This document shows positions 37,592-48,640 of a stretch of 64,000 nt of DNA, piece after piece. This DNA is from Fervidobacterium sp. (lineage in GTDB: Bacteria > Thermotogota > Thermotogae > Thermotogales > Fervidobacteriaceae). Each line of letters begins with the position of its first letter. The stretch's first letter is position 1. The DNA is taken from assembly GCA_049970055.1 (NCBI GenBank), contig JBMFNR010000001.1, positions 160,001 through 224,000 on the forward strand. The letters run 5' to 3'. The notes under the pieces are model-generated. The model did not search any database and was not told where the DNA came from. It worked only from the letters and a program-made list of their open reading frames with translations. A program made the translations under genes and the position numbers.

Positions 37592-37870
37592 TTATTTCTT
37601 ATTTGCAAGAATCTCTTTAATTTTCTCTTCAACACCTGATTTTTTACCGGGTAAGCACTTATCTGGTTTATCGCCTTTGACTATTGCCTTTGCGTATCCT
37701 TCACATCCTGGATAACCGCATGCGCCACAATTTATACCTGGAAGAGCTTCGAGAATAAGTTTAACTGTCGTGTCCTCTTCAACTTTAAACTTTTCACTTG
37801 TATAAGAAAGAAAAAGCCCAAAAGCAAAACCAATACTCCCAAGAAGTATCGCAGAATAAACGACCACCAC
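37592..37870 (-). CDS. rnfB: Short RnfB-like membrane Fe-S protein
   Basis: One TM helix, then KFKVEED..LPGINCGACGYPGCEGYA..KCLPG; likely GTG start at 37870 after GGAGGTG. Confidence 0.85.
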   Translation of the reverse strand: MVVVYSAILLGSIGFAFGLFLSYTSEKFKVEEDTTVKLILEALPGINCGACGYPGCEGYAKAIVKGDKPDKCLPGKKSGVEEKIKEILANKK

Positions 37871-37945
37871 ACCGGTCACCTCCGAAAGTAGTAAAATCAT
37901 AAATTCGCATTTTGTGTTGAAAATACTAATAGTAACGCTATGGAT

Positions 37946-37974
37946 ATTATATATCAATTTGAAAATAAATGCAA
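37946..37974 (-). promoter_or_regulatory. Putative sigma-A promoter of the rnfB-dprA-panC operon
   Basis: TTGCAT-N17-TATAAT on the minus strand. Confidence 0.65.
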
Positions 37975-38093
37975 ATACAAACTTTGGCTTATCTAAAAAA
38001 GCGCATCTTGGAAATATTAATTTAAGTTTATTCGTTTCAAATGTTTAACATTCAAAGGCTTGAAAATTTACAGATTGCATAGTACAAATGTAG

Positions 38094-38180
38094 TGCAGCG
38101 ACCCCCCTATCCCCCCTTGGAAGAGTTGAAAAAACTTTTTCAAGTTACCCCCGGGTGTAAACCGGGGGATTTTTGTTTTT
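38094..38180 (+). ncRNA. Candidate C-rich small RNA or leader RNA
   Basis: Two C6 tracts, an 11-bp hairpin with G-U pairs (38117-38143) and a GC-rich terminator with U tail, set in AT-rich intergenic DNA. 5' end estimated. Confidence 0.5.
38148..38180 (+). terminator. Intrinsic terminator upstream of pelG
   Basis: CCCCCGG-gtgtaaa-CCGGGGG-ATTTTTGTTTTT, with no protein gene ending in front of it. Confidence 0.8.
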
Positions 38181-38220
38181 ATGAGATTGTGTGATATAAT
38201 TTCTAATATCAGTAAATACT

Positions 38221-38258
38221 TTAATGAACACTTTAATTATTAATGAACACTTTAATTA
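38221..38258 (+). repeat. Perfect 2 x 19-bp tandem repeat in the pelG 5' region
   Basis: TTAATGAACACTTTAATTA at 38221-38239 and 38240-38258. Confidence 0.9.
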
Positions 38259-38282
38259 TTTTAAGAAGGCGTGGGAGTATCC

Positions 38283-39719
38283 ATGGCTGGTATTGGGTTT
38301 GAATTAAATAAATTGCTTAAGCGAAACTCATTTTTCTCAGAAGCGTTTGCATTTTTCTACTCAGCTAACATATCCGCAGGACCGTGGATAGTCTCTTCCA
38401 CCATAATGTTTCTAATTCAAACATACATACCTCAAAAACACATACCTTTTTTGATTTCCGGTATTATTTACACATTCATATTTTCGACAATCTTATTTGG
38501 AAGTGTTTCAACATCGGTTACACGTTATCTTTCGGACCTTATATACAAAAAGCAATTTGCAGAAATATATAATTTGTACACTTCTTCGGCGGGATATGCC
38601 TTTACCTCATCAGGTATATTTTTGATATTCTTTTTTATTGTAAATAAAATAACTGAATGGCAAAAGATAATACTCTTTTCCTATTCATTAACTGCACTTT
38701 CCGTAATATGGGTACAAGTTATATTTGTCTCTGCGATAAGAAGATTCATGCCTGTGATCCTAAGTTTTTTGACAGGAGGGAGTTTAAGCTTATTTTTGAC
38801 ATTGCATCTCTATCGTACAAAAAACGAATATTACGCTTACGCTGGATACAATGTAGGGTTAATGTTTATTATGGTAATCTTACAACTTTTCATCAGAAGA
38901 TTTTTGTACACAGGAGAATTTGATGATACTGGTAAAATTAAAGACGAAAAACCATATAGCGGAAATCAAAAAAAAATTCCTCTTTTCATTACATCAGTTA
39001 AAAAGTACAAAAAGCAAGCAATATCAGGTACTTTTACATACATGGCAGCTTGGATTGACGATTTCATTGCATGGGTTTATTTTCGTTACAGTATATCAAA
39101 AGGATTTATATTTGCACCACAGTATGATATACCGATGTTCATATCTTATCTTTTCATAATCCCGACGTTATCATTGTTTGTACTCAACTTAGAAACTGAG
39201 TTTTACACCTACTACAGGATATTTTACAAATCTATAGAAGAAAATAGAACGTTACGTTTTATTGAGTTGAGTAAACAAAACCTCGATGAAAGTCTTAAAT
39301 CTTCAACGAAATTAATCGTCGCGGTTCAATTTGCATTTATGCTTGCGGGATTGATACTTTCCAAGAGTTTGGCCGAGTTACTGAGATTCAACAATTACGG
39401 ACTTATGGCTTTGAGGGTTGGAATTATAGGGGCCGCAGCCAATGGTGTTTACCTTTATATTTCCTTGATAGCACACTATTTTGATCTTCCAGATATTCCG
39501 TTAAAATCTTCTATTTTAGCATTTTCAGTAAATCTTATTATATCATCATTAACTATTCCAAAGATACCCGGTGTAGGTTTTCTCGCTGGTTTCATTATCG
39601 CAGATATTTATTCTTTTATCTCATTTAGTAAAATTTACTCTTCATTGCTTCTGTTTGAGTTCTCAAGAAATAGATTATCAATGCCGAAGAGAGAGGTAAT
39701 CGTCCATGAGAATAAGTAG
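38283..39719 (+). CDS. pelG: Pel exopolysaccharide transporter PelG
   Basis: Diagnostic N-terminus MAGIGFELNKLL, SAGPW, VTRYLSDLIY, WIDDFIAW, YDIPMFISYL, LETEFY; polytopic. Confidence 0.92.
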   Translation: MAGIGFELNKLLKRNSFFSEAFAFFYSANISAGPWIVSSTIMFLIQTYIPQKHIPFLISGIIYTFIFSTILFGSVSTSVTRYLSDLIYKKQFAEIYNLYTSSAGYAFTSSGIFLIFFFIVNKITEWQKIILFSYSLTALSVIWVQVIFVSAIRRFMPVILSFLTGGSLSLFLTLHLYRTKNEYYAYAGYNVGLMFIMVILQLFIRRFLYTGEFDDTGKIKDEKPYSGNQKKIPLFITSVKKYKKQAISGTFTYMAAWIDDFIAWVYFRYSISKGFIFAPQYDIPMFISYLFIIPTLSLFVLNLETEFYTYYRIFYKSIEENRTLRFIELSKQNLDESLKSSTKLIVAVQFAFMLAGLILSKSLAELLRFNNYGLMALRVGIIGAAANGVYLYISLIAHYFDLPDIPLKSSILAFSVNLIISSLTIPKIPGVGFLAGFIIADIYSFISFSKIYSSLLLFEFSRNRLSMPKREVIVHENK

Positions 39720-40947
39720 GTGGAAGAACTCTATTAAGGAATTTTTTGAATTCTTTATAACAGCCGTATCCAGTGCTCCTAAGTCAACTATTACTTGGTT
39801 GATTGAATACATCCTCGTCGTATCAATTGTATATCTCATGTTTCAATTCTCATTTATTAGACTTGACATAACTATCATTCTGTTGCTAGGTACGGTGTTT
39901 ATTTGGTCTTCACGATATGGGTTGTTCGCTTTTATTGTGACAATTTCTATCTTCGAATTGATCTTTTCTTATATTTGCAAGTCAAATTCTATTTCGTTTT
40001 CAAAGAGTCTAACAATAATATTCTCTATCGGATTTGGACTTGTAACAGGGGTTATAGGTGAGATATTAAATAAGAAAATTAGAACGACGGAAAATGAAAA
40101 CACAAAGTGCAGGATGGAAAATGTAGAACTGCGTGGTCAAATAGATAAATTGAAAACTATTATTGACCAATTAGAACTAAGAGTATATTTTGAAGGACAA
40201 GGCATGATAAACTTACTAGAAAAGTTACAAGAATTGGAGATATTAGACCTTGATGAGATGCTTACCCGATCCGTGGAGATAATTGCCGATTTCTTTGGAC
40301 TTAAAAATTTGCACCTATATAAAAATGACAATTACTTTCTTAGATACGTTGCTGGTGTTGGTCAGAAGCGACTGCCAAATTCGTTTGAGCCAAAGATTTC
40401 AAAGGTAATATCAGGCGCTATTGAAAACGGTTATGCTTCTTTGCCAGGTGTCATTCTTGAAGATAATTTGGAACAATTCGAGCCTTGGTTTGCTGTTAGT
40501 GTTGGAAAAGGTGAAAACACATTTGGAGTATTAATAGTGGACGATATTGAACCTGAAAAATTTTCTCAAACTTTGATTTTATATATGCACGCCATAGCAT
40601 CCTGGCTTGGCGCGAATATTAAGATTATTACTGAGCAGAGCCAACTTCTAGAACAAAAGTACAAAAATCCTGATGGAACGTGGAAAGAGGAGTATTACTT
40701 ACAAAAAAAGAAAGTTTTACAAAAGAGACAGGAGAGGTTTGGTACACCGTATCAAGAACTATGTATCATATATCCAAAGCATCTACACCTTTCTATCATT
40801 AAAGAGTTTAGAAATTCTGATATTTTTATGGCCAATCAGGTCAATGATCAATTTAGGTTGAATGTATTATTAGCTGTTTGTGATGAGATTGGCAAGAAAA
40901 AAATATTGGAGAGGTTGATAAGAAAATATGAAATTGAGGTATGCTGA
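39706..40947 (+). CDS. pelD: PelD-like membrane protein (TM, coiled coil, GAF-like, degenerate GGDEF with RxxD)
   Basis: About four TMs including SRYGL; coiled coil LRGQIDKLK..LELRV; GAF-like region; EFRNSD I-site; overlaps pelG. Confidence 0.7.
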   Translation: MRISRWKNSIKEFFEFFITAVSSAPKSTITWLIEYILVVSIVYLMFQFSFIRLDITIILLLGTVFIWSSRYGLFAFIVTISIFELIFSYICKSNSISFSKSLTIIFSIGFGLVTGVIGEILNKKIRTTENENTKCRMENVELRGQIDKLKTIIDQLELRVYFEGQGMINLLEKLQELEILDLDEMLTRSVEIIADFFGLKNLHLYKNDNYFLRYVAGVGQKRLPNSFEPKISKVISGAIENGYASLPGVILEDNLEQFEPWFAVSVGKGENTFGVLIVDDIEPEKFSQTLILYMHAIASWLGANIKIITEQSQLLEQKYKNPDGTWKEEYYLQKKKVLQKRQERFGTPYQELCIIYPKHLHLSIIKEFRNSDIFMANQVNDQFRLNVLLAVCDEIGKKKILERLIRKYEIEVC

Positions 40948-41848
40948 AAAGTATGTTAGAGCGAAGAGTTACCACATTCTAGTTAGTGCAACAATCGCTT
41001 TTTTAGTTGTCGTAAATGTTATTTGTGTAGTAGTTTATGGCTTAAGATTTCAAAATTTTATAGTTTTCGCAGTTTCTGTGATTTTGTACTATCTTGAAAG
41101 GCGAAATATTCCGGATACGTTGGTCTTCGTAATGTCTTATCCACTTTCTTGGGTTTATTTACTCCCGATAAAAAACGAAGAAATAGAGGATTTTTTCAAC
41201 ATCCCCATACCACCTGAGATCAACGTGAAAATTGACGAAAATGCGATAAATGTATTACCAATCAAAACCGTATTGGCAACTGGGAGTGTTCAAGAAAAAA
41301 AACTGATCACGAAAGATATATTTGCGCAAGTTACAAAGGGAATTAACATAGAACAAAACATGAAGTATCTTCGCCAGCTAATCCGTGACCCGCACATGGA
41401 TGTTCAGCTTTACGCTGAACAAACGCTGGAAGATATTGAAAGTTATTTTGAAAACCTAATAACTAAAATAAAAAATGAAAATACCATTTATTCATGCGTT
41501 GTTATTTATAATTACCTCCGAACTGACATTCCTCGTGGAATTGTAAAGAGTGACTTTGCTAATCTATTGCGAGAAAAAATAAAAAGGGTAAGTTCTCGAG
41601 TGCCTGCTTATTTCGAGATTATGTATTACTTGACAGGCGATATAAACTATCTTTTGGAAAGTTTCAAGAAAACAGGGAACATACAACATCTCAGATTGTA
41701 CGTATTTGAAAAGCTAAAACTCAGAGATTACAACGAAGTAAAAATACTCATTCAAACTTATTCTAAATCTCTTTTATGCAACGATACAACTTTGGAAGAT
41801 TTGGCAGTGCAAAAAGTAAATGGGAGGCACGAGCCAAATGTTAAATAA
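40928..41848 (+). CDS. pelE: PelE-like protein (TM segments plus HEAT/TPR-like helices)
   Basis: N-terminal TMs; LPIKTVL..GSVQEKK..YLRQLIRDPHMDVQLYAEQTLEDIE resembles the PelE core; overlaps pelD. Confidence 0.62.
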   Translation: MKLRYAEKYVRAKSYHILVSATIAFLVVVNVICVVVYGLRFQNFIVFAVSVILYYLERRNIPDTLVFVMSYPLSWVYLLPIKNEEIEDFFNIPIPPEINVKIDENAINVLPIKTVLATGSVQEKKLITKDIFAQVTKGINIEQNMKYLRQLIRDPHMDVQLYAEQTLEDIESYFENLITKIKNENTIYSCVVIYNYLRTDIPRGIVKSDFANLLREKIKRVSSRVPAYFEIMYYLTGDINYLLESFKKTGNIQHLRLYVFEKLKLRDYNEVKILIQTYSKSLLCNDTTLEDLAVQKVNGRHEPNVK

Positions 41849-42689
41849 AAAATTCATCCTTGAAACCTTACCGCCAAGAGGTACTGTTGCTAATAAGTAT
41901 ATTCAATTTTGTGTCGAATCAACAATCGTAGGCGCTGAAGTTATAGCGGTAACAGACCTTCCTATGGGGAGCTCGCGTGTTTCACCGATAGCACCTGCAC
42001 ACATGTTGGTTGAGAAAGGTGTTGAGGTGTTAATGCACTTTTCACGCACGACGAGGAATGCCATCAGAATAGAAGGTGATTTATTAGCAACTCATATGCT
42101 TGGAATAAAAAACGTGCTCATACTTTCAGGTGACGATCCACGTGTTGGTACGTATCCGTTCTCTTCAAGTGTAGAAGATTTCAGTATCTACGACGTTTTT
42201 AGGTTGGTTAAACTCCTAAATGAAAGAAATGAAAATCTCGCTGGCTTGAAAATATACGGTACATTCTCATTCAACCCGGGCGGAGTTTTCAGTCCTTTTG
42301 AAAAAGATTATATGCAAACCATCGAAAGAATGAACAAGAAAGTAGAAAACGGCTGCAAATTTTTTGTTTCTCAACCAGTATTCAGTGAATCAACTATTCT
42401 AAATTTCCTTGAAAAAGCGGAAGGCAACTTGAAGACAAACAAAATATATGTTGCCCTAATGGTCTTTGAAAGCTTAAGTCAATTAGAGTACTTTTCAAAA
42501 GTACCTGGTGTATTCATACCAAAAGAGTATTTTCATCAAAAGGATGAAACAATAAAGTCGTATTCTTTAAAAAGAGCTATGAATGTAGTAGAAAAGCTTT
42601 CTTCATACGTCGAAGGTTTTTATCTAACCTCTACCACAAAAGATCTGGAGGTTATCAAGAATATATCCGAAGTTATTTTTAATAGTTAG
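41838..42689 (+). CDS. metF: Methylenetetrahydrofolate reductase family protein
   Basis: ETLPPRG, VTDLP, MHFSRTTRN, GIKNVLILSGDDP, KKVENGCKFFVSQPVF; ATG 41838 after GGAGG. Confidence 0.85.
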   Translation: MLNKKFILETLPPRGTVANKYIQFCVESTIVGAEVIAVTDLPMGSSRVSPIAPAHMLVEKGVEVLMHFSRTTRNAIRIEGDLLATHMLGIKNVLILSGDDPRVGTYPFSSSVEDFSIYDVFRLVKLLNERNENLAGLKIYGTFSFNPGGVFSPFEKDYMQTIERMNKKVENGCKFFVSQPVFSESTILNFLEKAEGNLKTNKIYVALMVFESLSQLEYFSKVPGVFIPKEYFHQKDETIKSYSLKRAMNVVEKLSSYVEGFYLTSTTKDLEVIKNISEVIFNS

Positions 42690-42717
42690 GGTGCTAATTT
42701 AAAAGCGAGGGAAAACA

Positions 42718-45009
42718 ATGATTTACGCAGTTGCTTTATCCAAATCCAACATTGTAAAACCTATTTTGTGTGAATACACCGGAGAAATAAACTTAGGTGA
42801 GAGAGTACTTGTAAGCTACAAGGGAAAGAAAAATATTGGGTATGTTGTGGAAAAAATAGAGGTATCAAGTTCAAAATCAATTGTATCGAGTATTATAGAA
42901 CGTCTTGATTACACATCATTTTTCGACAATCAAAGGATAATAGCATTGCGTAATCTAGCTGAATTTTATGGCTCGGGTGTCGGAAAATACTTTGATATAT
43001 CTTTTCCTCCGGATTTTGATGATTATTTTTCGTTATTTGTCGAAAGCACAAGCCCATTTCTGAATATAGAGCGTCAACCTTATGAAGAGTTCAAAAAAAT
43101 GAAAAATTACCAAGAATACATTTCAAACGGGTTGGTAAGAATATATAGAGATTTTGAAACAAGTAAACCGAGGCCAAGAAAGAAAAATCAATACGTTTAT
43201 CTTAAATCATCTCCTCAAGAACTTTTAACATACAAGCTGACGGCAAATCAGACGATTGTTGTGAATTATCTTTTGATGAAAGAATCGGCAGAAATCGAAG
43301 AAATAGTTAATGACCTAAACATCGAAAAGGATGTAATAATACAACTCAAAAACAAAGGTATTGTAGACGTTGTTGAACATTACATATCAAACCGCAGTCT
43401 GCGGAAAGTTAAACTTACCAAAGAGCAAGAAGAAGTTGTGAGGAATATACTTTCGTATAATTTACACGATCCAAAGAAACATCTTCTATTTGGACCAACT
43501 GGTAGTGGGAAGACAGAAGTATATTTGGAAGTTATTGAAAAGTACATTCCCTTCGGTAATGTGCTCTATCTTGTTCCAGAAATATCTTTGACGGAACAGA
43601 CCATAGCACGTTTGAAGAGCAGATTCCCAGATGTGACAATTGCACTTTATCACAGTTATCTAACACACTCAAAGCGTGTCGAAATTTGGGCAAAGGCGAT
43701 CAAAGGCGAGATAAATATATTAGTAGGCCCAAGAAGTGCTGCATTTGTGCCTATTAAGAATTTAAAACTTGCAATTGTTGATGAAGAACACGACGAAGGC
43801 TATTATAACGATACTGAACCGTTTTACGACGTACATACCTTTTTAGATTTACTACCAATCACAGTTGTGTACGGCTCAGCTACCCCATCTTTAGTTAGCT
43901 ATTATAAAGCTTTAAATGGTGAATACGCGTTTCATAAAATTACACAAAGGTTTGAAGTTGATCTTCCGAATGTTGAAATTGTTGATATGAGATCAGAAAA
44001 GAAATTAACATCTTCAATATCTGAAACTTTATACAAAGCTACACTAGATACCTTTGAATCTGGAAAGTCCGCGATTATTTATACAAGGAGGAAAGGGTTT
44101 TCGCGTGTACAGTGCAGTATCTGCGGGTATATCGTAAAGTGTGATCACTGCGATGTGGGTATGACATACCATCTTGATATCAACAAATTGAGATGTCACA
44201 TCTGTGGAAGTGAAAAGAACTTAGATATGCGATGCCCTAATTGCGGTTCAAATATGTTCATTGATAAAGGAACAGGCACAGAAAAAGTTGAAAAAGAATT
44301 ATTTCAGCTTTTTCCAGGAAGAAACATTGGAAGGATAGACGCAGAGGTAGCCGACTCTCCCGACAAGCTAAAGAAAATGTTGGAACACCTAAGGGAGGGG
44401 AAAATCGACATGGTTGTCGGGACCAAAATGATAACAAAAGGCCTTGATATATACAGAATAGGTCTTGTAGGGATTGTTGATATAGATGCGTTGATATCAT
44501 ACCCCGATCTTAACGCCCCACTTAGAACTTTCCAAACCTTGGTACAAGTAATAGGGAGGTCGGGAAGAACAGAAAAGGGTAAAGCCATTATTCAAACATA
44601 CAACCCGCTACATCCTGTAATTACATTTGCGAGTAACCAAGATGTTGAAGGCTACTACAAAAGAGAAATTGAACTGAGAAGAGAACTTAACTATCCGCCT
44701 TTTGCAAGTGTTGTTGCTGTTACCTATTCAAATGCTGATGTGAATATAGCACGTGAAACAGTTGAAATTTTTGCAGACGAGATTGAGAAGATAAATATCG
44801 AATACAGAAAAACTCATGGTGAAGAACTCTACTTGGAGATCCTTGGACCATCAGAACATCCGATTTTCAAATCGAAGAATAAATATCGCTATCAACTATT
44901 CCTAAAAATAGAGAACAATAAAGTGAGCGATTTACTAATTGTAATAAAAGACTTAACCGCACAGTACACAGGTGACTGGACAATTAAAGTCAATCCACCT
45001 GAGATTTAG
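42718..45009 (+). CDS. priA: Primosomal protein N' (replication restart helicase)
   Basis: GPTGSGKTEVY, VPEISLT, VDEEHD, four CxxC pairs, QVIGRSGR, YPPF. Confidence 0.96.
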   Translation: MIYAVALSKSNIVKPILCEYTGEINLGERVLVSYKGKKNIGYVVEKIEVSSSKSIVSSIIERLDYTSFFDNQRIIALRNLAEFYGSGVGKYFDISFPPDFDDYFSLFVESTSPFLNIERQPYEEFKKMKNYQEYISNGLVRIYRDFETSKPRPRKKNQYVYLKSSPQELLTYKLTANQTIVVNYLLMKESAEIEEIVNDLNIEKDVIIQLKNKGIVDVVEHYISNRSLRKVKLTKEQEEVVRNILSYNLHDPKKHLLFGPTGSGKTEVYLEVIEKYIPFGNVLYLVPEISLTEQTIARLKSRFPDVTIALYHSYLTHSKRVEIWAKAIKGEINILVGPRSAAFVPIKNLKLAIVDEEHDEGYYNDTEPFYDVHTFLDLLPITVVYGSATPSLVSYYKALNGEYAFHKITQRFEVDLPNVEIVDMRSEKKLTSSISETLYKATLDTFESGKSAIIYTRRKGFSRVQCSICGYIVKCDHCDVGMTYHLDINKLRCHICGSEKNLDMRCPNCGSNMFIDKGTGTEKVEKELFQLFPGRNIGRIDAEVADSPDKLKKMLEHLREGKIDMVVGTKMITKGLDIYRIGLVGIVDIDALISYPDLNAPLRTFQTLVQVIGRSGRTEKGKAIIQTYNPLHPVITFASNQDVEGYYKREIELRRELNYPPFASVVAVTYSNADVNIARETVEIFADEIEKINIEYRKTHGEELYLEILGPSEHPIFKSKNKYRYQLFLKIENNKVSDLLIVIKDLTAQYTGDWTIKVNPPEI

Positions 45010-45014
45010 AGATT

Positions 45015-45048
45015 AAAAAAGGGTAGATGGTGTCATCTACCCTTTTTT
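45015..45048. terminator. Bidirectional intrinsic terminator
   Basis: AAAAAAGGGTAGATG-gtgt-CATCTACCCTTTTTT. Confidence 0.9.
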
Positions 45049-45061
45049 ATTCATTCCCCTT

Positions 45062-45163
45062 TCACTTTTTTGAATTCTTAATGATTGTTCCAACCGAAGT
45101 CAAAGTTAATACAAGTATTATTCCCCAACTTCCAATCATAAAAGCTAAAGCTGTCACTGACAT
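45062..45163 (-). CDS. 33-aa single-TM protein, putative NSS transporter small subunit (MetS-like)
   Basis: Not in the ORF track. MSVTALAFMIGSWGIILVLTLTSVGTIIKNSKK; AGGAG RBS overlaps the NSS stop codon. Confidence 0.75.
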   Translation of the reverse strand: MSVTALAFMIGSWGIILVLTLTSVGTIIKNSKK

Positions 45164-45175
45164 TTTACCACGCTC

Positions 45176-46750
45176 CTACTTTGAATTATCAACATTATCA
45201 ATATTATCTAGCTTTTGACCTAAATTTTTATAAGTTAAGATGAAGCTAGAGATAAAGACGATTATTAGAACAATTCTTGCAGCTATTACCCAGGGAATAA
45301 GTACGGGGTTGTTTTTAACAAAGTCTGGTATCAATTTAAAGTAACCATGTTTCGCATAATCGATTGTTGAGAAAACAAGTAAAAGGATGATAAACACAGG
45401 AGTTAAGAATCCCATGACTGTTCTGTAAAACCACTTTGGTATTTTCCAATAGCTTCCTTTGTTGATTTCCTCCAACCCTTTTGACTTAAAAAGCCATACT
45501 GCTGCAATTACCTCTATTAAACCCAGTAAAACCAAAAAGTATGTACCAACCCAATTGTCGAGCTCAGTTAAGTACATAAGGTCTGCTGTTTTCGTAAGAA
45601 TAGGCTCAAGAGCTACAGGAAGACCTCCAATGATGTACATTACAAAAACAAATGTTGAACCCTTTTTCCTTTCTATACCAAACTCATCTTCTAAAAATGC
45701 TGTCATATAGTTAAACATTGCAATTGAACTTGTTATACCAGCAAAGAACAAAAGTAAAAACCAAAGCATACCGAATATTCTTCCACCGGCCATTTCTCTA
45801 AAAACATTTGGAAGGGCAATAAAAGACAATCCTACACCGCTTTTTAAACCTTCAGTACCAAGGAACGTAAACGCTATCGGTATAACTATAGTTCCCGCGA
45901 GTATAACCTCGGCAAATTCGTTAAGGGATGCGGTTGCAACCGCTGATGTTACAATATCGTCTTCATCTCTCAAATACGATGCGTAATTTTGGATAATTCC
46001 CATGCCAAGAGAAAGTGTGAAGAATATTTGTCCTGCAGCGGCAAGCGTTGCGGACCAATTTAGTTCATTCCAACGGGGCGACCAAAGAAAATTAAGTCCT
46101 TTAATTGGATTCCAGTCTGGGTTAACGGGGGAGCCAAGTGTCAAAGTTCTGATTAGTAGAACAAGTGAAAATATATAGATTGCTGGCATTGCAACTTTCG
46201 CCAGAGTTTCCAATCCTTTGTTTATTCCTCTTCTTGTTATAACCCAAAGAATTGAAAGTGTAATAATCCAGAATAACAAAACTCTATATGGGCTTTGGAT
46301 ATAACCAGCAAAATACTGAACAGTGTCTACAGATTTGTCCATGTATTTTCCGATAGCGGTTTCAAAAGAATAACCAAGTGTCCAGCCAATGACATGGTTG
46401 TAGTATGAGTTTAAGAGCATAACCACTGACAGAGCAATAGCACCGGCAAAAGCACCGAAAATCTTTGCGCCTTTGTACCCCATGGTTTCTTTCGCTTGCA
46501 GATAAACCATTGGACCAATCGTACCGTGGCCGTACCTTCCTCCATATCTTCCTTGTGCCCATTCAATTATTAGCAGAGGAATACCCATAAATATAAAAGC
46601 TACAAAATATGGTATCATGAAAGCTCCTCCGCCGTTTTTTGCAGCTTGGTAAGGGAAGCGCCAAAAATTACCAAGACCTATGGCGTTCCCTGCCATGGCT
46701 AAAATAAGTCCGAGTGTACTACCCCAGTGTTCTCTTGCCTTTTTTGCCAC
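45176..46750 (-). CDS. Sodium-dependent amino-acid transporter, NSS (LeuT-like) family
   Basis: REHW, MAGNAIGLGNFWRFPY, NGGGAFMIPY, AAAGQIFFTLSLG, FFAGITSSIA; likely GTG start at 46750. Confidence 0.95.
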   Translation of the reverse strand: MAKKAREHWGSTLGLILAMAGNAIGLGNFWRFPYQAAKNGGGAFMIPYFVAFIFMGIPLLIIEWAQGRYGGRYGHGTIGPMVYLQAKETMGYKGAKIFGAFAGAIALSVVMLLNSYYNHVIGWTLGYSFETAIGKYMDKSVDTVQYFAGYIQSPYRVLLFWIITLSILWVITRRGINKGLETLAKVAMPAIYIFSLVLLIRTLTLGSPVNPDWNPIKGLNFLWSPRWNELNWSATLAAAGQIFFTLSLGMGIIQNYASYLRDEDDIVTSAVATASLNEFAEVILAGTIVIPIAFTFLGTEGLKSGVGLSFIALPNVFREMAGGRIFGMLWFLLLFFAGITSSIAMFNYMTAFLEDEFGIERKKGSTFVFVMYIIGGLPVALEPILTKTADLMYLTELDNWVGTYFLVLLGLIEVIAAVWLFKSKGLEEINKGSYWKIPKWFYRTVMGFLTPVFIILLLVFSTIDYAKHGYFKLIPDFVKNNPVLIPWVIAARIVLIIVFISSFILTYKNLGQKLDNIDNVDNSK

Positions 46751-46981: not shown

Positions 46982-48640
46982 TCATTTTTCTTGAACGTTC
47001 TCTGTATTTTTACCAAACTTTGTTATAAAGTCTTTGAACATACTAACTATTAAATCCCTTCTATACTGTGCAAAGCACCTAAGCCATTCGCTCTCATTCT
47101 TCCAAGTTTCCAATTCTGGTTTGCCCCACCTTGCAGAATGGCGTACGATTTCATCTTTTAAATCCTCGATTCTTCTTTCAACTATTTTTTCAAACCTTTC
47201 TTCTGTAAATATGTTATTTAGTATGTAGTAGAAGCGGTTTATGAACTTTACCTTAAATTCGGTGTTTTCAAGTAATTTGCGTAAAAGCAATGTTGCTTCA
47301 TCGACTGTTGTCCAAGGGATCTCGGGATCACCATACACTGCAATCCGTATTGTATTGTGCTCAGGGACCCATAACGCAAGGTCCATATCGTACATCATCC
47401 AGCGCCATTTGCCATCTCCATATTTGTTTTCTTCGGGTTTTAGCACTCTCCACATGCGTTCATTATTACCAGGCCAATCTCTATTGGCAGTTAAGATTTC
47501 CGCTATCTTAAAGTCTATAAAACTGTCTATATCTATAACCTGGCACACCTTTTGATAATTAGCCTTGATCGATAAATCACTATTTTTCACAAAATTTATC
47601 AGATCAACAAAACTTTGTTGATCGCCTTCTTTTCCATCTTGAATCGACATATCATAGTTTATTATAACAGTATTTTTTTCATTTACACCGTATTTAATTT
47701 GTAAGTATCTTTGATCATAGTACTCCATTAAATAAGAAATTCCCCAGTATTCTCCATTTATGTAATGAACAAGAGGATAGTTATCTTGTGTATCAAAATT
47801 AAGTTCTTTAAAAACTTCCTGTGCAATCGAATCACGCATGTACGTTCCTTCCCAATCGTTGCCGGCATTTCTCAATAAAAGCTTCTTGTAACCTACTCTA
47901 CCAAAAAACGGATACGCAAATTGCTTTTCGGAATTCCTCGCGTAAAGTCTTATAGATTTTATAGGCAAACTACGTGTAAATTCTCCGTGTATGCGGATTC
48001 CTATTTGTGTTCTGTATTTCAACTTACCATCTTCAAAATACTCCATTATTGCAGGTCTTTCAGATGCATCGCCTCGTTGTTGATAATTCCCAGTCCAATA
48101 AGGATTTGATGGATCAAACGTCTTTCCGGGTACGTAGATACCTTTTTCATCGTCAAATAAATTCTCCGGGTCAGTAATTATTGAGAGAACCGGCAATTTG
48201 TGAGTAATTCCTATAAAATAACTCCTAACAGCTGAATCGATGATTTTTCCATCTTTAAGTTCGATAATTCTTAAAATGGTCGCTTTGTCAAAAGTTCCAG
48301 TTGGTGCCCTCCACAATGGTGACGTTGGAATATACATATACGTGTTGTCATACTTCTTTGAAATAACCAACGGTGAGGAATATTTGTACGTGTTTTTACT
48401 GTCGATACGTGGTGTGGTGCCATCAAGTGTGTAATACACTTCCCCATTAACTGACGAAGTTATTATAACTACTATAGATGAATCATAAAAACCTGACTCG
48501 TGAGATATGATCAGTTGTGGAAAGGTTGTTGGCATGATTAAAAACGTGAAAAACAAAGTCATGATTCGAATTTTCAATTTAGTTTCCCCCAGTTTTATCA
48601 CTGCAAACTTATTATTTGTACGCTTTAATCCAAAAAACAT
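46982..48640 (-). CDS. CotH kinase-family protein with N-terminal chitobiase-C/FN3-associated domain
   Basis: SGFY..YYTLDGTTP, GIRIHG..KSIRLY, LRNAGND, YINGEYWG, NRDWPGNN, WRWMMYDMD; start uncertain. Confidence 0.88.
   Translation of the reverse strand: MFFGLKRTNNKFAVIKLGETKLKIRIMTLFFTFLIMPTTFPQLIISHESGFYDSSIVVIITSSVNGEVYYTLDGTTPRIDSKNTYKYSSPLVISKKYDNTYMYIPTSPLWRAPTGTFDKATILRIIELKDGKIIDSAVRSYFIGITHKLPVLSIITDPENLFDDEKGIYVPGKTFDPSNPYWTGNYQQRGDASERPAIMEYFEDGKLKYRTQIGIRIHGEFTRSLPIKSIRLYARNSEKQFAYPFFGRVGYKKLLLRNAGNDWEGTYMRDSIAQEVFKELNFDTQDNYPLVHYINGEYWGISYLMEYYDQRYLQIKYGVNEKNTVIINYDMSIQDGKEGDQQSFVDLINFVKNSDLSIKANYQKVCQVIDIDSFIDFKIAEILTANRDWPGNNERMWRVLKPEENKYGDGKWRWMMYDMDLALWVPEHNTIRIAVYGDPEIPWTTVDEATLLLRKLLENTEFKVKFINRFYYILNNIFTEERFEKIVERRIEDLKDEIVRHSARWGKPELETWKNESEWLRCFAQYRRDLIVSMFKDFITKFGKNTENVQEK

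Follow-up and report, generated by a model that had tools for sequence, protein, structure and literature searches.

The Pel systems closest to the one described here are those of Bacillus cereus ATCC 10987, in which a single operon, pelDEA_DAFG (PMC7112168), encodes the five core proteins and the deacetylase among them, PelA_DA, has a solved structure (PDB code: 9ZAU; PMC13254593), and of Pseudomonas aeruginosa, with the genes pelABCDEFG. In both, PelD is reported to bind cyclic di-GMP (c-di-GMP) through residues whose mutation abolishes binding (R367, D370 and R402 in P. aeruginosa; R363, D366 and R395 in B. cereus), the 403-residue B. cereus protein with a dissociation constant (KD) of 103 nM (PMC7112168). 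Here we describe three overlapping genes, pelG, pelD and pelE, in a 64,000-nucleotide stretch of the genome of a hot-spring Fervidobacterium (contig JBMFNR010000001.1, positions 160,001-224,000; we call the whole stretch the window, and positions are counted within it unless another contig or locus is named). The three genes very probably encode the membrane core of a Gram-positive-type Pel synthase, with the remaining parts encoded at two further loci.

Pel has been seen in this phylum before. Bundalovic-Torma et al. (2020) report that Pel operons occur in Thermotogae (PMC7112194), and in the supplementary tables of that survey Thermotoga, Thermosipho and Marinitoga appear with pelF and pelG, the Thermotogae rows consulted giving only these two plus one PelA. 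Fervidobacterium does not occur in the tables of operons (files 1 and 2); file 7, which gives the genomes surveyed, has it twice. The probable reason for its absence from the operon tables is that in this genus pelF is not linked to pelG. The main text of Whitfield et al. (2020; PMC7112168) has no occurrence of 'Thermotog'. At NCBI the name PelF is already attached to proteins of Fervidobacterium and other Thermotogota; public records label the Fervidobacterium relatives of pelD and pelE 'hypothetical' or 'GAF domain-containing'. What we describe belongs, in rearranged form, to a known Pel system and is not a new system. Added here are the assignments of PelD, PelE and PelA_DA in the phylum, the three-way split in one genus and the link between pel and a hydrolase of family GH191.

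Set beside B. cereus, the Fervidobacterium genome has the same five core proteins, including a PelD of about 400 residues with transmembrane (TM), GAF and predicted degenerate GGDEF parts and the RxxD-plus-arginine pattern, a PelE of about 300 residues and a PelA_DA that is a separate membrane-anchored deacetylase. The hydrolase is a separate accessory gene in both, and PelB and PelC are encoded beside the genes in neither. Unlike in B. cereus, the genes stand at three loci (pelG-D-E, pelF-A_DA and the hydrolase) rather than in one operon, the hydrolase is of the TM1410/GH191 type rather than a GH166 PelA_H, and the host, where B. cereus is a monoderm, has an outer toga and keeps pelGDE embedded 5' of metF-priA. 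With P. aeruginosa the locus shares the predicted cytoplasmic fold of PelD, the I-site pattern, the PelF and PelG families and, presumably, the logic of the PelDEFG inner-membrane complex; it differs from P. aeruginosa in having no bifunctional PelA, in the failure of the PelD_GGDEF model to match and in gene order. Neither PelB nor PelC is encoded beside the pelGDE or the pelF-pelA_DA locus, where we looked (no genome-wide search was made), and neither would be expected, because the comparison system is of the Gram-positive pelDEA_DAFG type.

Nearer relatives help to place the locus. We write G000 for the window's genome, G000-G023 for the 24 genomes of its taxonomic family (G004 and G006 are congeneric, G014 is from a sister genus) and L with a number for pel loci collected for comparison, such as L019 from Marinitoga and L094 from Streptococcus intermedius. 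The Thermotoga, Thermosipho and Marinitoga loci have the phylum and the PelF and PelG families in common with ours, and contiguous clusters occur in G018 and G022 (pelD-E-F-G-A_DA-GH191) and in L019 (pelD-E-F-G-A_DA). The pel cluster of S. intermedius (PMC12345266; L094) has the D-E-A_DA-F-G core as well, and its PelE-position protein falls in the same profile family as ours; it differs in that its PelD is reported to be without a c-di-GMP-binding domain (PMC7112168) and in carrying CotH-VTC-DUF4956 accessory genes.

The three genes in the window

All three open reading frames (ORFs) lie on the plus strand and overlap, pelG with pelD by 14 nucleotides and pelD with pelE by 20, which bears out an earlier note on this DNA, made from its letters alone, that had described three overlapping membrane genes at 38283..41848. 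They encode 482, 413 and 306 residues, or 478 for the first if it begins at its ATG. That first gene is pelG. Its product matches Pfam PelG (PF16933) over profile positions 1-448 of 452 (E 5.7e-102; 342.4 bits against a cut-off of 29), and the match starts at residue 5 of the longer ORF, which is the ATG at 38283 where the note had seen a clear PelG N terminus. Orthologues above the cut-off are found in 18 of the 24 family genomes and in 47 of 151 genomes, or 18 of 48 genera, of the phylum; phmmer found no relative of PelG in the PDB.

The second protein is best read as a PelD-type putative c-di-GMP receptor, an assignment supported by its predicted fold, by profile matches to 37 PelD-position genes and by conserved I-site residues. 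Its AlphaFold2 (AF2) model (pLDDT, the predicted local distance difference test score, 82.7) has helices at 26-47, 53-71, 73-93 and 100-179, the fourth of which runs on into a long helix, and suggests four TM helices, as in P. aeruginosa PelD, followed by a coiled coil (about 100-179), a GAF domain (about 181-305) and a small alpha/beta domain (about 320-413). The TM-coiled coil-GAF layout proposed earlier is thus what the model shows. The accompanying statement that there is no GGDEF holds at the level of Pfam, where neither GGDEF nor PelD_GGDEF (PF16963) matches and GAF_3 stays below threshold (24.4 bits against 27), but the model adds the small domain behind the GAF. PF16963 likewise matches none of eight PelD-position proteins from other phyla, and so does not define PelD of the Gram-positive type; across the genome it had no match, a result made uninformative by a control that was silent in 14 of 14 genomes. 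NCBIfam has no match for the second or third ORF or for PelA_DA.

Searched against the PDB with Foldseek, the PelD model found cytoplasmic chains of P. aeruginosa PelD (PDB codes: 4ETZ, 4EU0, 4DN0 and 4DMZ) in eight of the top ten rows, the best match among them (E 3.2e-7 to 1.1e-5), with alignments of 257-274 columns spanning both cytoplasmic domains; the other two rows were a GAF-GGDEF cyclase. VIA-align paired residues 164-413 of the model with 157-425 of chain 4dmz_B (Z 15.0, 211 residues).

The profile evidence comes from A1, built from 19 PelD sequences of the Fervidobacterium/Pseudothermotoga family, and from a comparison set of 80 pel loci fetched around PelF relatives. Among 2907 ORFs called from all the loci collected, A1 matches 46 at E<=1e-3, and 37 of these lie in pel loci outside the Thermotogota (best E 1.1e-17), nearly all directly upstream of pelE. 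All 19 members of A1 itself share R369, S371, D372 and R403, at sequence identities down to 42%. The RNSD motif picked out earlier has its codons exactly where it was placed, at R369-D372, and the R369/D372/R403 pattern agrees with the published binding residues of P. aeruginosa and B. cereus. We aligned 21 PelD sequences: the window's protein, two from other Thermotogota, five Fervidobacterium relatives, six from Bacillota (406-421 residues), one from a Rokubacteria metagenome-assembled genome, and the C-terminal parts of six long, epimerase-fused PelD-position proteins (605-743 residues), that of S. intermedius included. The RxxD motif and the distal arginine are aligned in 20 of them, S. 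intermedius being the sole exception.

For the third protein, profile comparison and gene position support the name PelE-type, on weaker evidence than for the other parts. Its AF2 model (pLDDT 70.3) consists of helices only, those near the N terminus (4-78 in the model) forming a hydrophobic region set at about 15-80 and those of about 112-297 a helical-repeat domain, and Pfam, NCBIfam and phmmer against the PDB gave no match. A profile of 11 Fervidobacterium sequences (A2) matches, in three other Thermotogota loci, the gene that separates pelD from pelF (L047, 3.4e-18; L018, 4.1e-13; L019, 3.1e-7) and the PelE position of an Acidaminobacter locus (3.7e-5). Iterated, and including the window's own family, it converged at 80 matches, 74 of them non-Thermotogota proteins of 280-370 residues, and when A2 was compared by hhalign with an alignment of those 74 PelE-position proteins the probability was 96.1% (E 3.4e-9, 119 columns). 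The slot between pelD and pelF is occupied in L018, L019, L047, L059 and G018, and pelD adjoins pelE in 27 loci of the order D-E-A-F-G, as well as in other orders. A2 finds PelE in 13 family genomes of two genera, the PelE-position ORF of G018 being found by wider profiles only. The ESM Atlas places closest to the third protein clusters of unnamed Fusobacteriota and Bacillota proteins, about 300-340 residues long, together with HEAT/tetratricopeptide repeat (TPR) proteins of Pseudomonadota, at 0.90-0.94, a lead only. The PelE-like helical protein of the earlier note is therefore borne out by hhalign and synteny, while the structure search gave no significant match.

Partner genes at two further loci

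The earlier note had reasoned that a genome with no PelF homologue would make the module a relic. PelF is encoded on contig C4 (G000:C4:73088-74449), where it scores 311.6 bits against the NCBIfam equivalog NF038011 (cut-off 100) and has the domains DUF3492 and GT1; four other GT4 genes of the genome fall below the PelF cut-off. The next gene, overlapping pelF by 4 nucleotides, is pelA_DA. Its product, of 746 residues, matches DUF2194 (E 7e-172) and the B. cereus PelA_DA structure 9ZAU (E 3.9e-32), the founder of family CE26 (PMC13254593); the translation shows an N-terminal hydrophobic anchor, and the protein is homologous to the one that Bacillota loci encode between pelE and pelF. A third gene on C4 (46063-46728), 27 kb from pelF, encodes a 300-residue hydrolase (Pfam GH114, 98.7 bits) that matches the TM_1410 structures (E 1.7e-36); TM1410 has been assigned to GH191, a newly created family in which an environmental enzyme is reported to cleave Pel (PMC12054363). 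The statement that pelF and pelA are absent is thus true of the window, but both types are encoded elsewhere in the genome. Of the two activities of a GH166/CE PelA, for which the note had proposed a search, the genome has a counterpart of the deacetylase in its CE26-type PelA_DA; its hydrolase is of GH191 type and not GH166.

The pel genes are in this way divided between contigs C1 and C4 and do not form one operon, as the note's split locus implied. They nonetheless travel together. PelG, PelD (A1), PelF, DUF2194 and GH114/191 are each above cut-off in the identical 18 of 24 family genomes (G000-G005, G008-G018 and G022) and all missing from G006, G007, G019, G020, G021 and G023, five of these six being 96-99% complete. 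We treat this as a pattern and not as a statistic, since related genomes are not independent, and PelE stands outside the five families.

Gene order suggests how the split may have come about. The sister genus (G014) has the genes contiguously, as FKBP-pelF-pelA_DA-pelG-pelD-pelE-5'-nucleotidase. The window's genome and G004 have them in two places: major facilitator superfamily (MFS) gene-FKBP-pelF-pelA_DA-DUF155-5'-nucleotidase in one, and dprA-rnfB-like / pelG-pelD-pelE-metF-priA in the other. The two are 0.85-1.0 Mb apart in four complete congeneric genomes. In G006, which is without pel genes, dprA-rnfB-like is followed by a conserved upstream element, a promoter-like site and then metF-priA directly, which is why we regard pelGDE as an insert that separates a housekeeping operon from a promoter. 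G006 may represent the state before insertion or a clean loss of pelGDE. On this evidence an ancestral pelF-pelA_DA-pelG-pelD-pelE operon would have lost pelGDE by excision, and these genes would now stand between the conserved promoter-like site and metF-priA. That pelG comes first, flagged in the earlier note as departing from the usual order, is true of this genome but is no peculiarity of it, for G-D(-E) orders recur in G014, G138 and L051; in the comparison set of 80 loci the prevailing orders are D-E-A-F-G (27) and E-A-F-G (28, D being undetected by A1).

Two observations concern the contiguous clusters. In G018 (L099 1371-2231, minus strand) and G022 (C36:3808-4455), which belong to two further genera of the family, a TM1410/GH191-type gene adjoins pelA_DA at the end of the pelD-E-F-G-A_DA cluster. 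G018 also has a 128-residue ORF between pelE and pelF (L099 7296-7682, minus strand) that is without a Pfam match and of which we noticed no counterpart in the window's genome.

Proposed mechanism and rival readings

By analogy with P. aeruginosa and B. cereus, c-di-GMP from the genome's GGDEF enzymes would bind the I-site of PelD (R369, D372 and R403) in a degenerate GGDEF-like domain. A membrane complex of PelD, PelE and PelG would then recruit or activate cytoplasmic PelF, a GT4 enzyme that may polymerise a chain of the N-acetylgalactosamine (GalNAc) type, and PelG would export that chain across the membrane. Outside, the membrane-anchored PelA_DA, beside PelG, would partly remove N-acetyl groups as a CE26-type enzyme, and the GH191 hydrolase would trim the polymer.

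A number of results weigh against reading the locus as the core of a Pel synthase, and they are best taken together with the alternatives. Neither phmmer nor a hidden Markov model (HMM) of the 19 A1 relatives found a PDB match for the second ORF, and no direct link to P. aeruginosa PelD emerged at the sequence level. In the VIA list GAF chains score Z 13-15 with a root-mean-square deviation (rmsd) of about 3 A over model residues 153-317, and the best GAF-only chains (Z 14.9) tie with PelD (Z 15.0) at far lower rmsd. The two-domain PelD alignments do reach residue 413, but at an rmsd of 13-14 A; because the GAF-only chains tie at lower rmsd, the C-terminal domain is not independently established. 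The model of PelE found nothing with Foldseek at E<=0.001, the best matches being TPR/14-3-3 proteins at about 0.1. The iterated PelE profile also took in one generic TPR protein of 747 residues (L095), and an HMM of the 74 non-Thermotogota proteins alone gives the window's PelE only E 0.021; the same HMM finds L047 (1.5e-18) and L019 (1.1e-11), which link it transitively to the window's PelE. A preprint on F. islandicum reports a biofilm without detectable exopolysaccharide (EPS) under its conditions, and the Thermotoga enzyme TmGH191 is reported to be inactive on GAG oligomers (PMC12054363). Finally, some relatives are damaged. The pelD of G002, a complete congeneric genome, is split by an IS110-family transposase (PF01548, E 7e-35; PF02371, E 7e-29); that of G004 (C1:1717867-1719075) has one in-frame TGA, leaving a called ORF of 378 residues against about 410; and the pelG of G013 (C45:15039-16360) is in two adjacent pieces. 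The last two may be pseudogenes or sequencing errors.

The rival that survives best, though we think it unlikely, is that the machine is active and makes a polymer chemically unlike the GalNAc/galactosamine (GalN) chain of Pel, being Pel-like in architecture only. The donor sugar of PelF cannot be read from sequence, PelD here is without the fused epimerase domain of many Bacillota PelDs, TmGH191 did not act on GAG oligomers, and Whitfield et al. warn that divergent loci may make another polymer. Against this, PelF scores at three times the NCBIfam equivalog cut-off, the deacetylase falls in a CE26 family for which activity on alpha-1,4-GalNAc oligomers has been reported, and one enzyme from the family of the linked hydrolase is reported to act on Pel; that 11 matches to short-chain dehydrogenase/reductase (SDR)/epimerase families in the genome could supply UDP-GalNAc is a weak argument on the same side.

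We think it distinctly unlikely that the second ORF, though homologous to PelD, has lost the ability to sense c-di-GMP, regulation being exerted at transcription or by some other ligand bound to the GAF domain. In favour of this reading, the C-terminal domain, of about 95 residues, is short and matched by no GGDEF model, the streptococcal PelD is reported to work without such a domain, and pelGDE are apparently driven by the promoter of a housekeeping operon. Yet B. cereus PelD, which does bind c-di-GMP, is equally short, the I-site residues are kept throughout A1 and in the alignment across phyla, the 411-416-residue forms of Bacillales among them, and the genome has 16 GGDEF-domain matches, all above cut-off, that might supply the ligand.

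That the genes are a decaying or silent relic, persisting after the break-up of the operon while the polymer is no longer made, is suggested by the three separate loci, the damaged relatives, the F. islandicum biofilm and the loss of all the genes from 6 of 24 family genomes, and is very improbable given that all six pel-related ORFs of this genome match their profiles at full length (PelG 1-448 of 452, PelD 1-409 of 409, PelE 16-300 of 302 and PelF 2-489 of 489), that G004 retains the split arrangement with identical flanks, that functional residues stay invariant at such low identities, and that the all-or-none co-occurrence of unlinked loci is the outcome to be expected if selection acts on a shared function.

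Transcription unit, neighbours and significance

The features of the locus are collected below, with the disrupted congeneric pelD for comparison.

Features of the pelG-pelD-pelE locus, in window positions unless a locus is named
Feature	Position	Strand	Basis or remark
Extended -10 promoter-like site, TGTGATATAAT	38189-38199	+	Read from sequence; positional conservation; probable promoter of pelG-pelD-pelE-metF-priA
pelG, 12-TM MOP/PST-type exporter subunit of Pel synthase	38283-39719	+	Pfam PF16933; alternative start GTG 38271
pelD, putative c-di-GMP receptor	39706-40947	+	AF2, Foldseek, VIA, A1 profile
RxxD I-site codons R369-N-S-D372 of PelD	40810-40821	+	Alignment
R403 codon of PelD, distal arginine	40912-40914	+	Alignment pattern matching P. 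aeruginosa R402 and B. cereus R395
pelE, putative PelDEFG scaffold	40928-41848	+	hhalign, A2 profile, gene position
metF-like methylenetetrahydrofolate reductase (MTHFR) gene, not a Pel component	41820-42689	+	Pfam MTHFR, E 9.1e-23; overlaps pelE stop
priA, not a Pel component; last gene of predicted transcription unit	42718-45009	+	NCBIfam TIGR00595, 446.7 bits (cut-off 230)
pelD of G002, interrupted by an IS110-family transposase gene	L114 1950-3197 (G002:C1:1872500-1878000)	-	Complete congeneric genome; pelD halves 1.4 kb apart

On the opposite strand, 5' of pelG, lie an RnfB-like Fe-S gene and dprA. Downstream the operon appears to run on into metF and priA, as had been noted: the metF ORF overlaps pelE, priA is next, the order pelE-metF-priA is also that of G004, and no convincing plus-strand terminator was found in 38401-45400, from pelG to the end of priA. 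The only strong terminator-like hairpin on that strand, at 38148-38168, is upstream of pelG. When the upstream regions of 12 Fervidobacterium genomes are aligned, all 12 show a TGn-TATAAT-like site at the matching place; G006 is among them, and there the site is directly 5' of metF. A generic promoter scan found 33 sites against 31.5 in shuffled sequence, that is, no excess, so the call is one of conservation alone. The five genes are probably co-transcribed from this site. With pelGDE behind the promoter-like site of metF-priA, transcription would probably be housekeeping-like and control mainly post-translational.

We considered a c-di-GMP riboswitch 5' of pelG and rejected it, since the conserved element there ends in a terminator, a separate promoter-like site follows, and the element is kept in G006, which has no pel genes; an Rfam scan of 37800-38400 found no family at gathering score. 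The element looks instead like a candidate small RNA of about 80 nucleotides between the rnfB-like gene and pelG (within 38035-38180, plus strand), with a promoter-like site of its own, a C-rich single-stranded 5' stretch (ACCCCCCUAUCCCCCC), a 12-bp stem-loop and the hairpin named above as its terminator. Its predicted fold is -29.2 kcal/mol, and no Rfam family is above threshold. We searched 13 Fervidobacterium genomes, of which 12 hold it, and 11 genomes of other genera, none of which does; a 35-nucleotide core (38095-38129) is single-copy in each of the 12 and identical in 11. Its presence in G006 makes it independent of pel.

The pelG leader has a feature of its own, a perfect tandem duplication of a 19-nucleotide unit (TTAATGAACACTTTAATTA, twice; 38221-38258, plus strand) that begins after the promoter-like site and ends before the ribosome-binding site. 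Of the aligned Fervidobacterium leaders this genome's alone has it; it was not seen in the 11 others.

Some 5 kb downstream of pelE, on the minus strand (46982-48640), is a CotH kinase-family gene (PF08757, E 5.6e-62, with Fn3_assoc and CHB_HEX_C_1). The pel clusters of streptococci and clostridia also come with CotH genes. Of the CotH-VTC-DUF4956 module we found CotH alone, the neighbouring ORFs of 209 and 228 residues having no Pfam match.

What do these genes tell us about the family and its biology? The Fervidobacterium pelD and pelE genes, annotated in public records as 'hypothetical' or 'GAF domain-containing', acquire names, and a complete Pel set with unlinked pelF and pelG is one that operon surveys based on proximity would probably miss. 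GH191/TM1410, solved structurally but functionally unassigned, is tied genetically to Pel by its place beside pelA_DA in G018 and G022 and by the co-occurrence in 18 of 24 genomes. The thermostable PelD, PelE, PelG and PelF could serve structural work on the still-unsolved PelDEFG complex. The finding also raises the question of how an exopolysaccharide machine of the Gram-positive type delivers its polymer in a cell that wears a toga. As a long shot, a monoderm-type Pel machine, with its membrane-anchored PelA_DA and GH191 hydrolase and no PelB/PelC pair close by, might release the cationic polymer under the toga, as the matrix of a periplasm-like space, or the polymer might cross the toga by a route unrelated to known synthase-dependent exporters; with the membrane core captured by the metF-priA operon, the binding of c-di-GMP to PelD would then be the sole specific switch.

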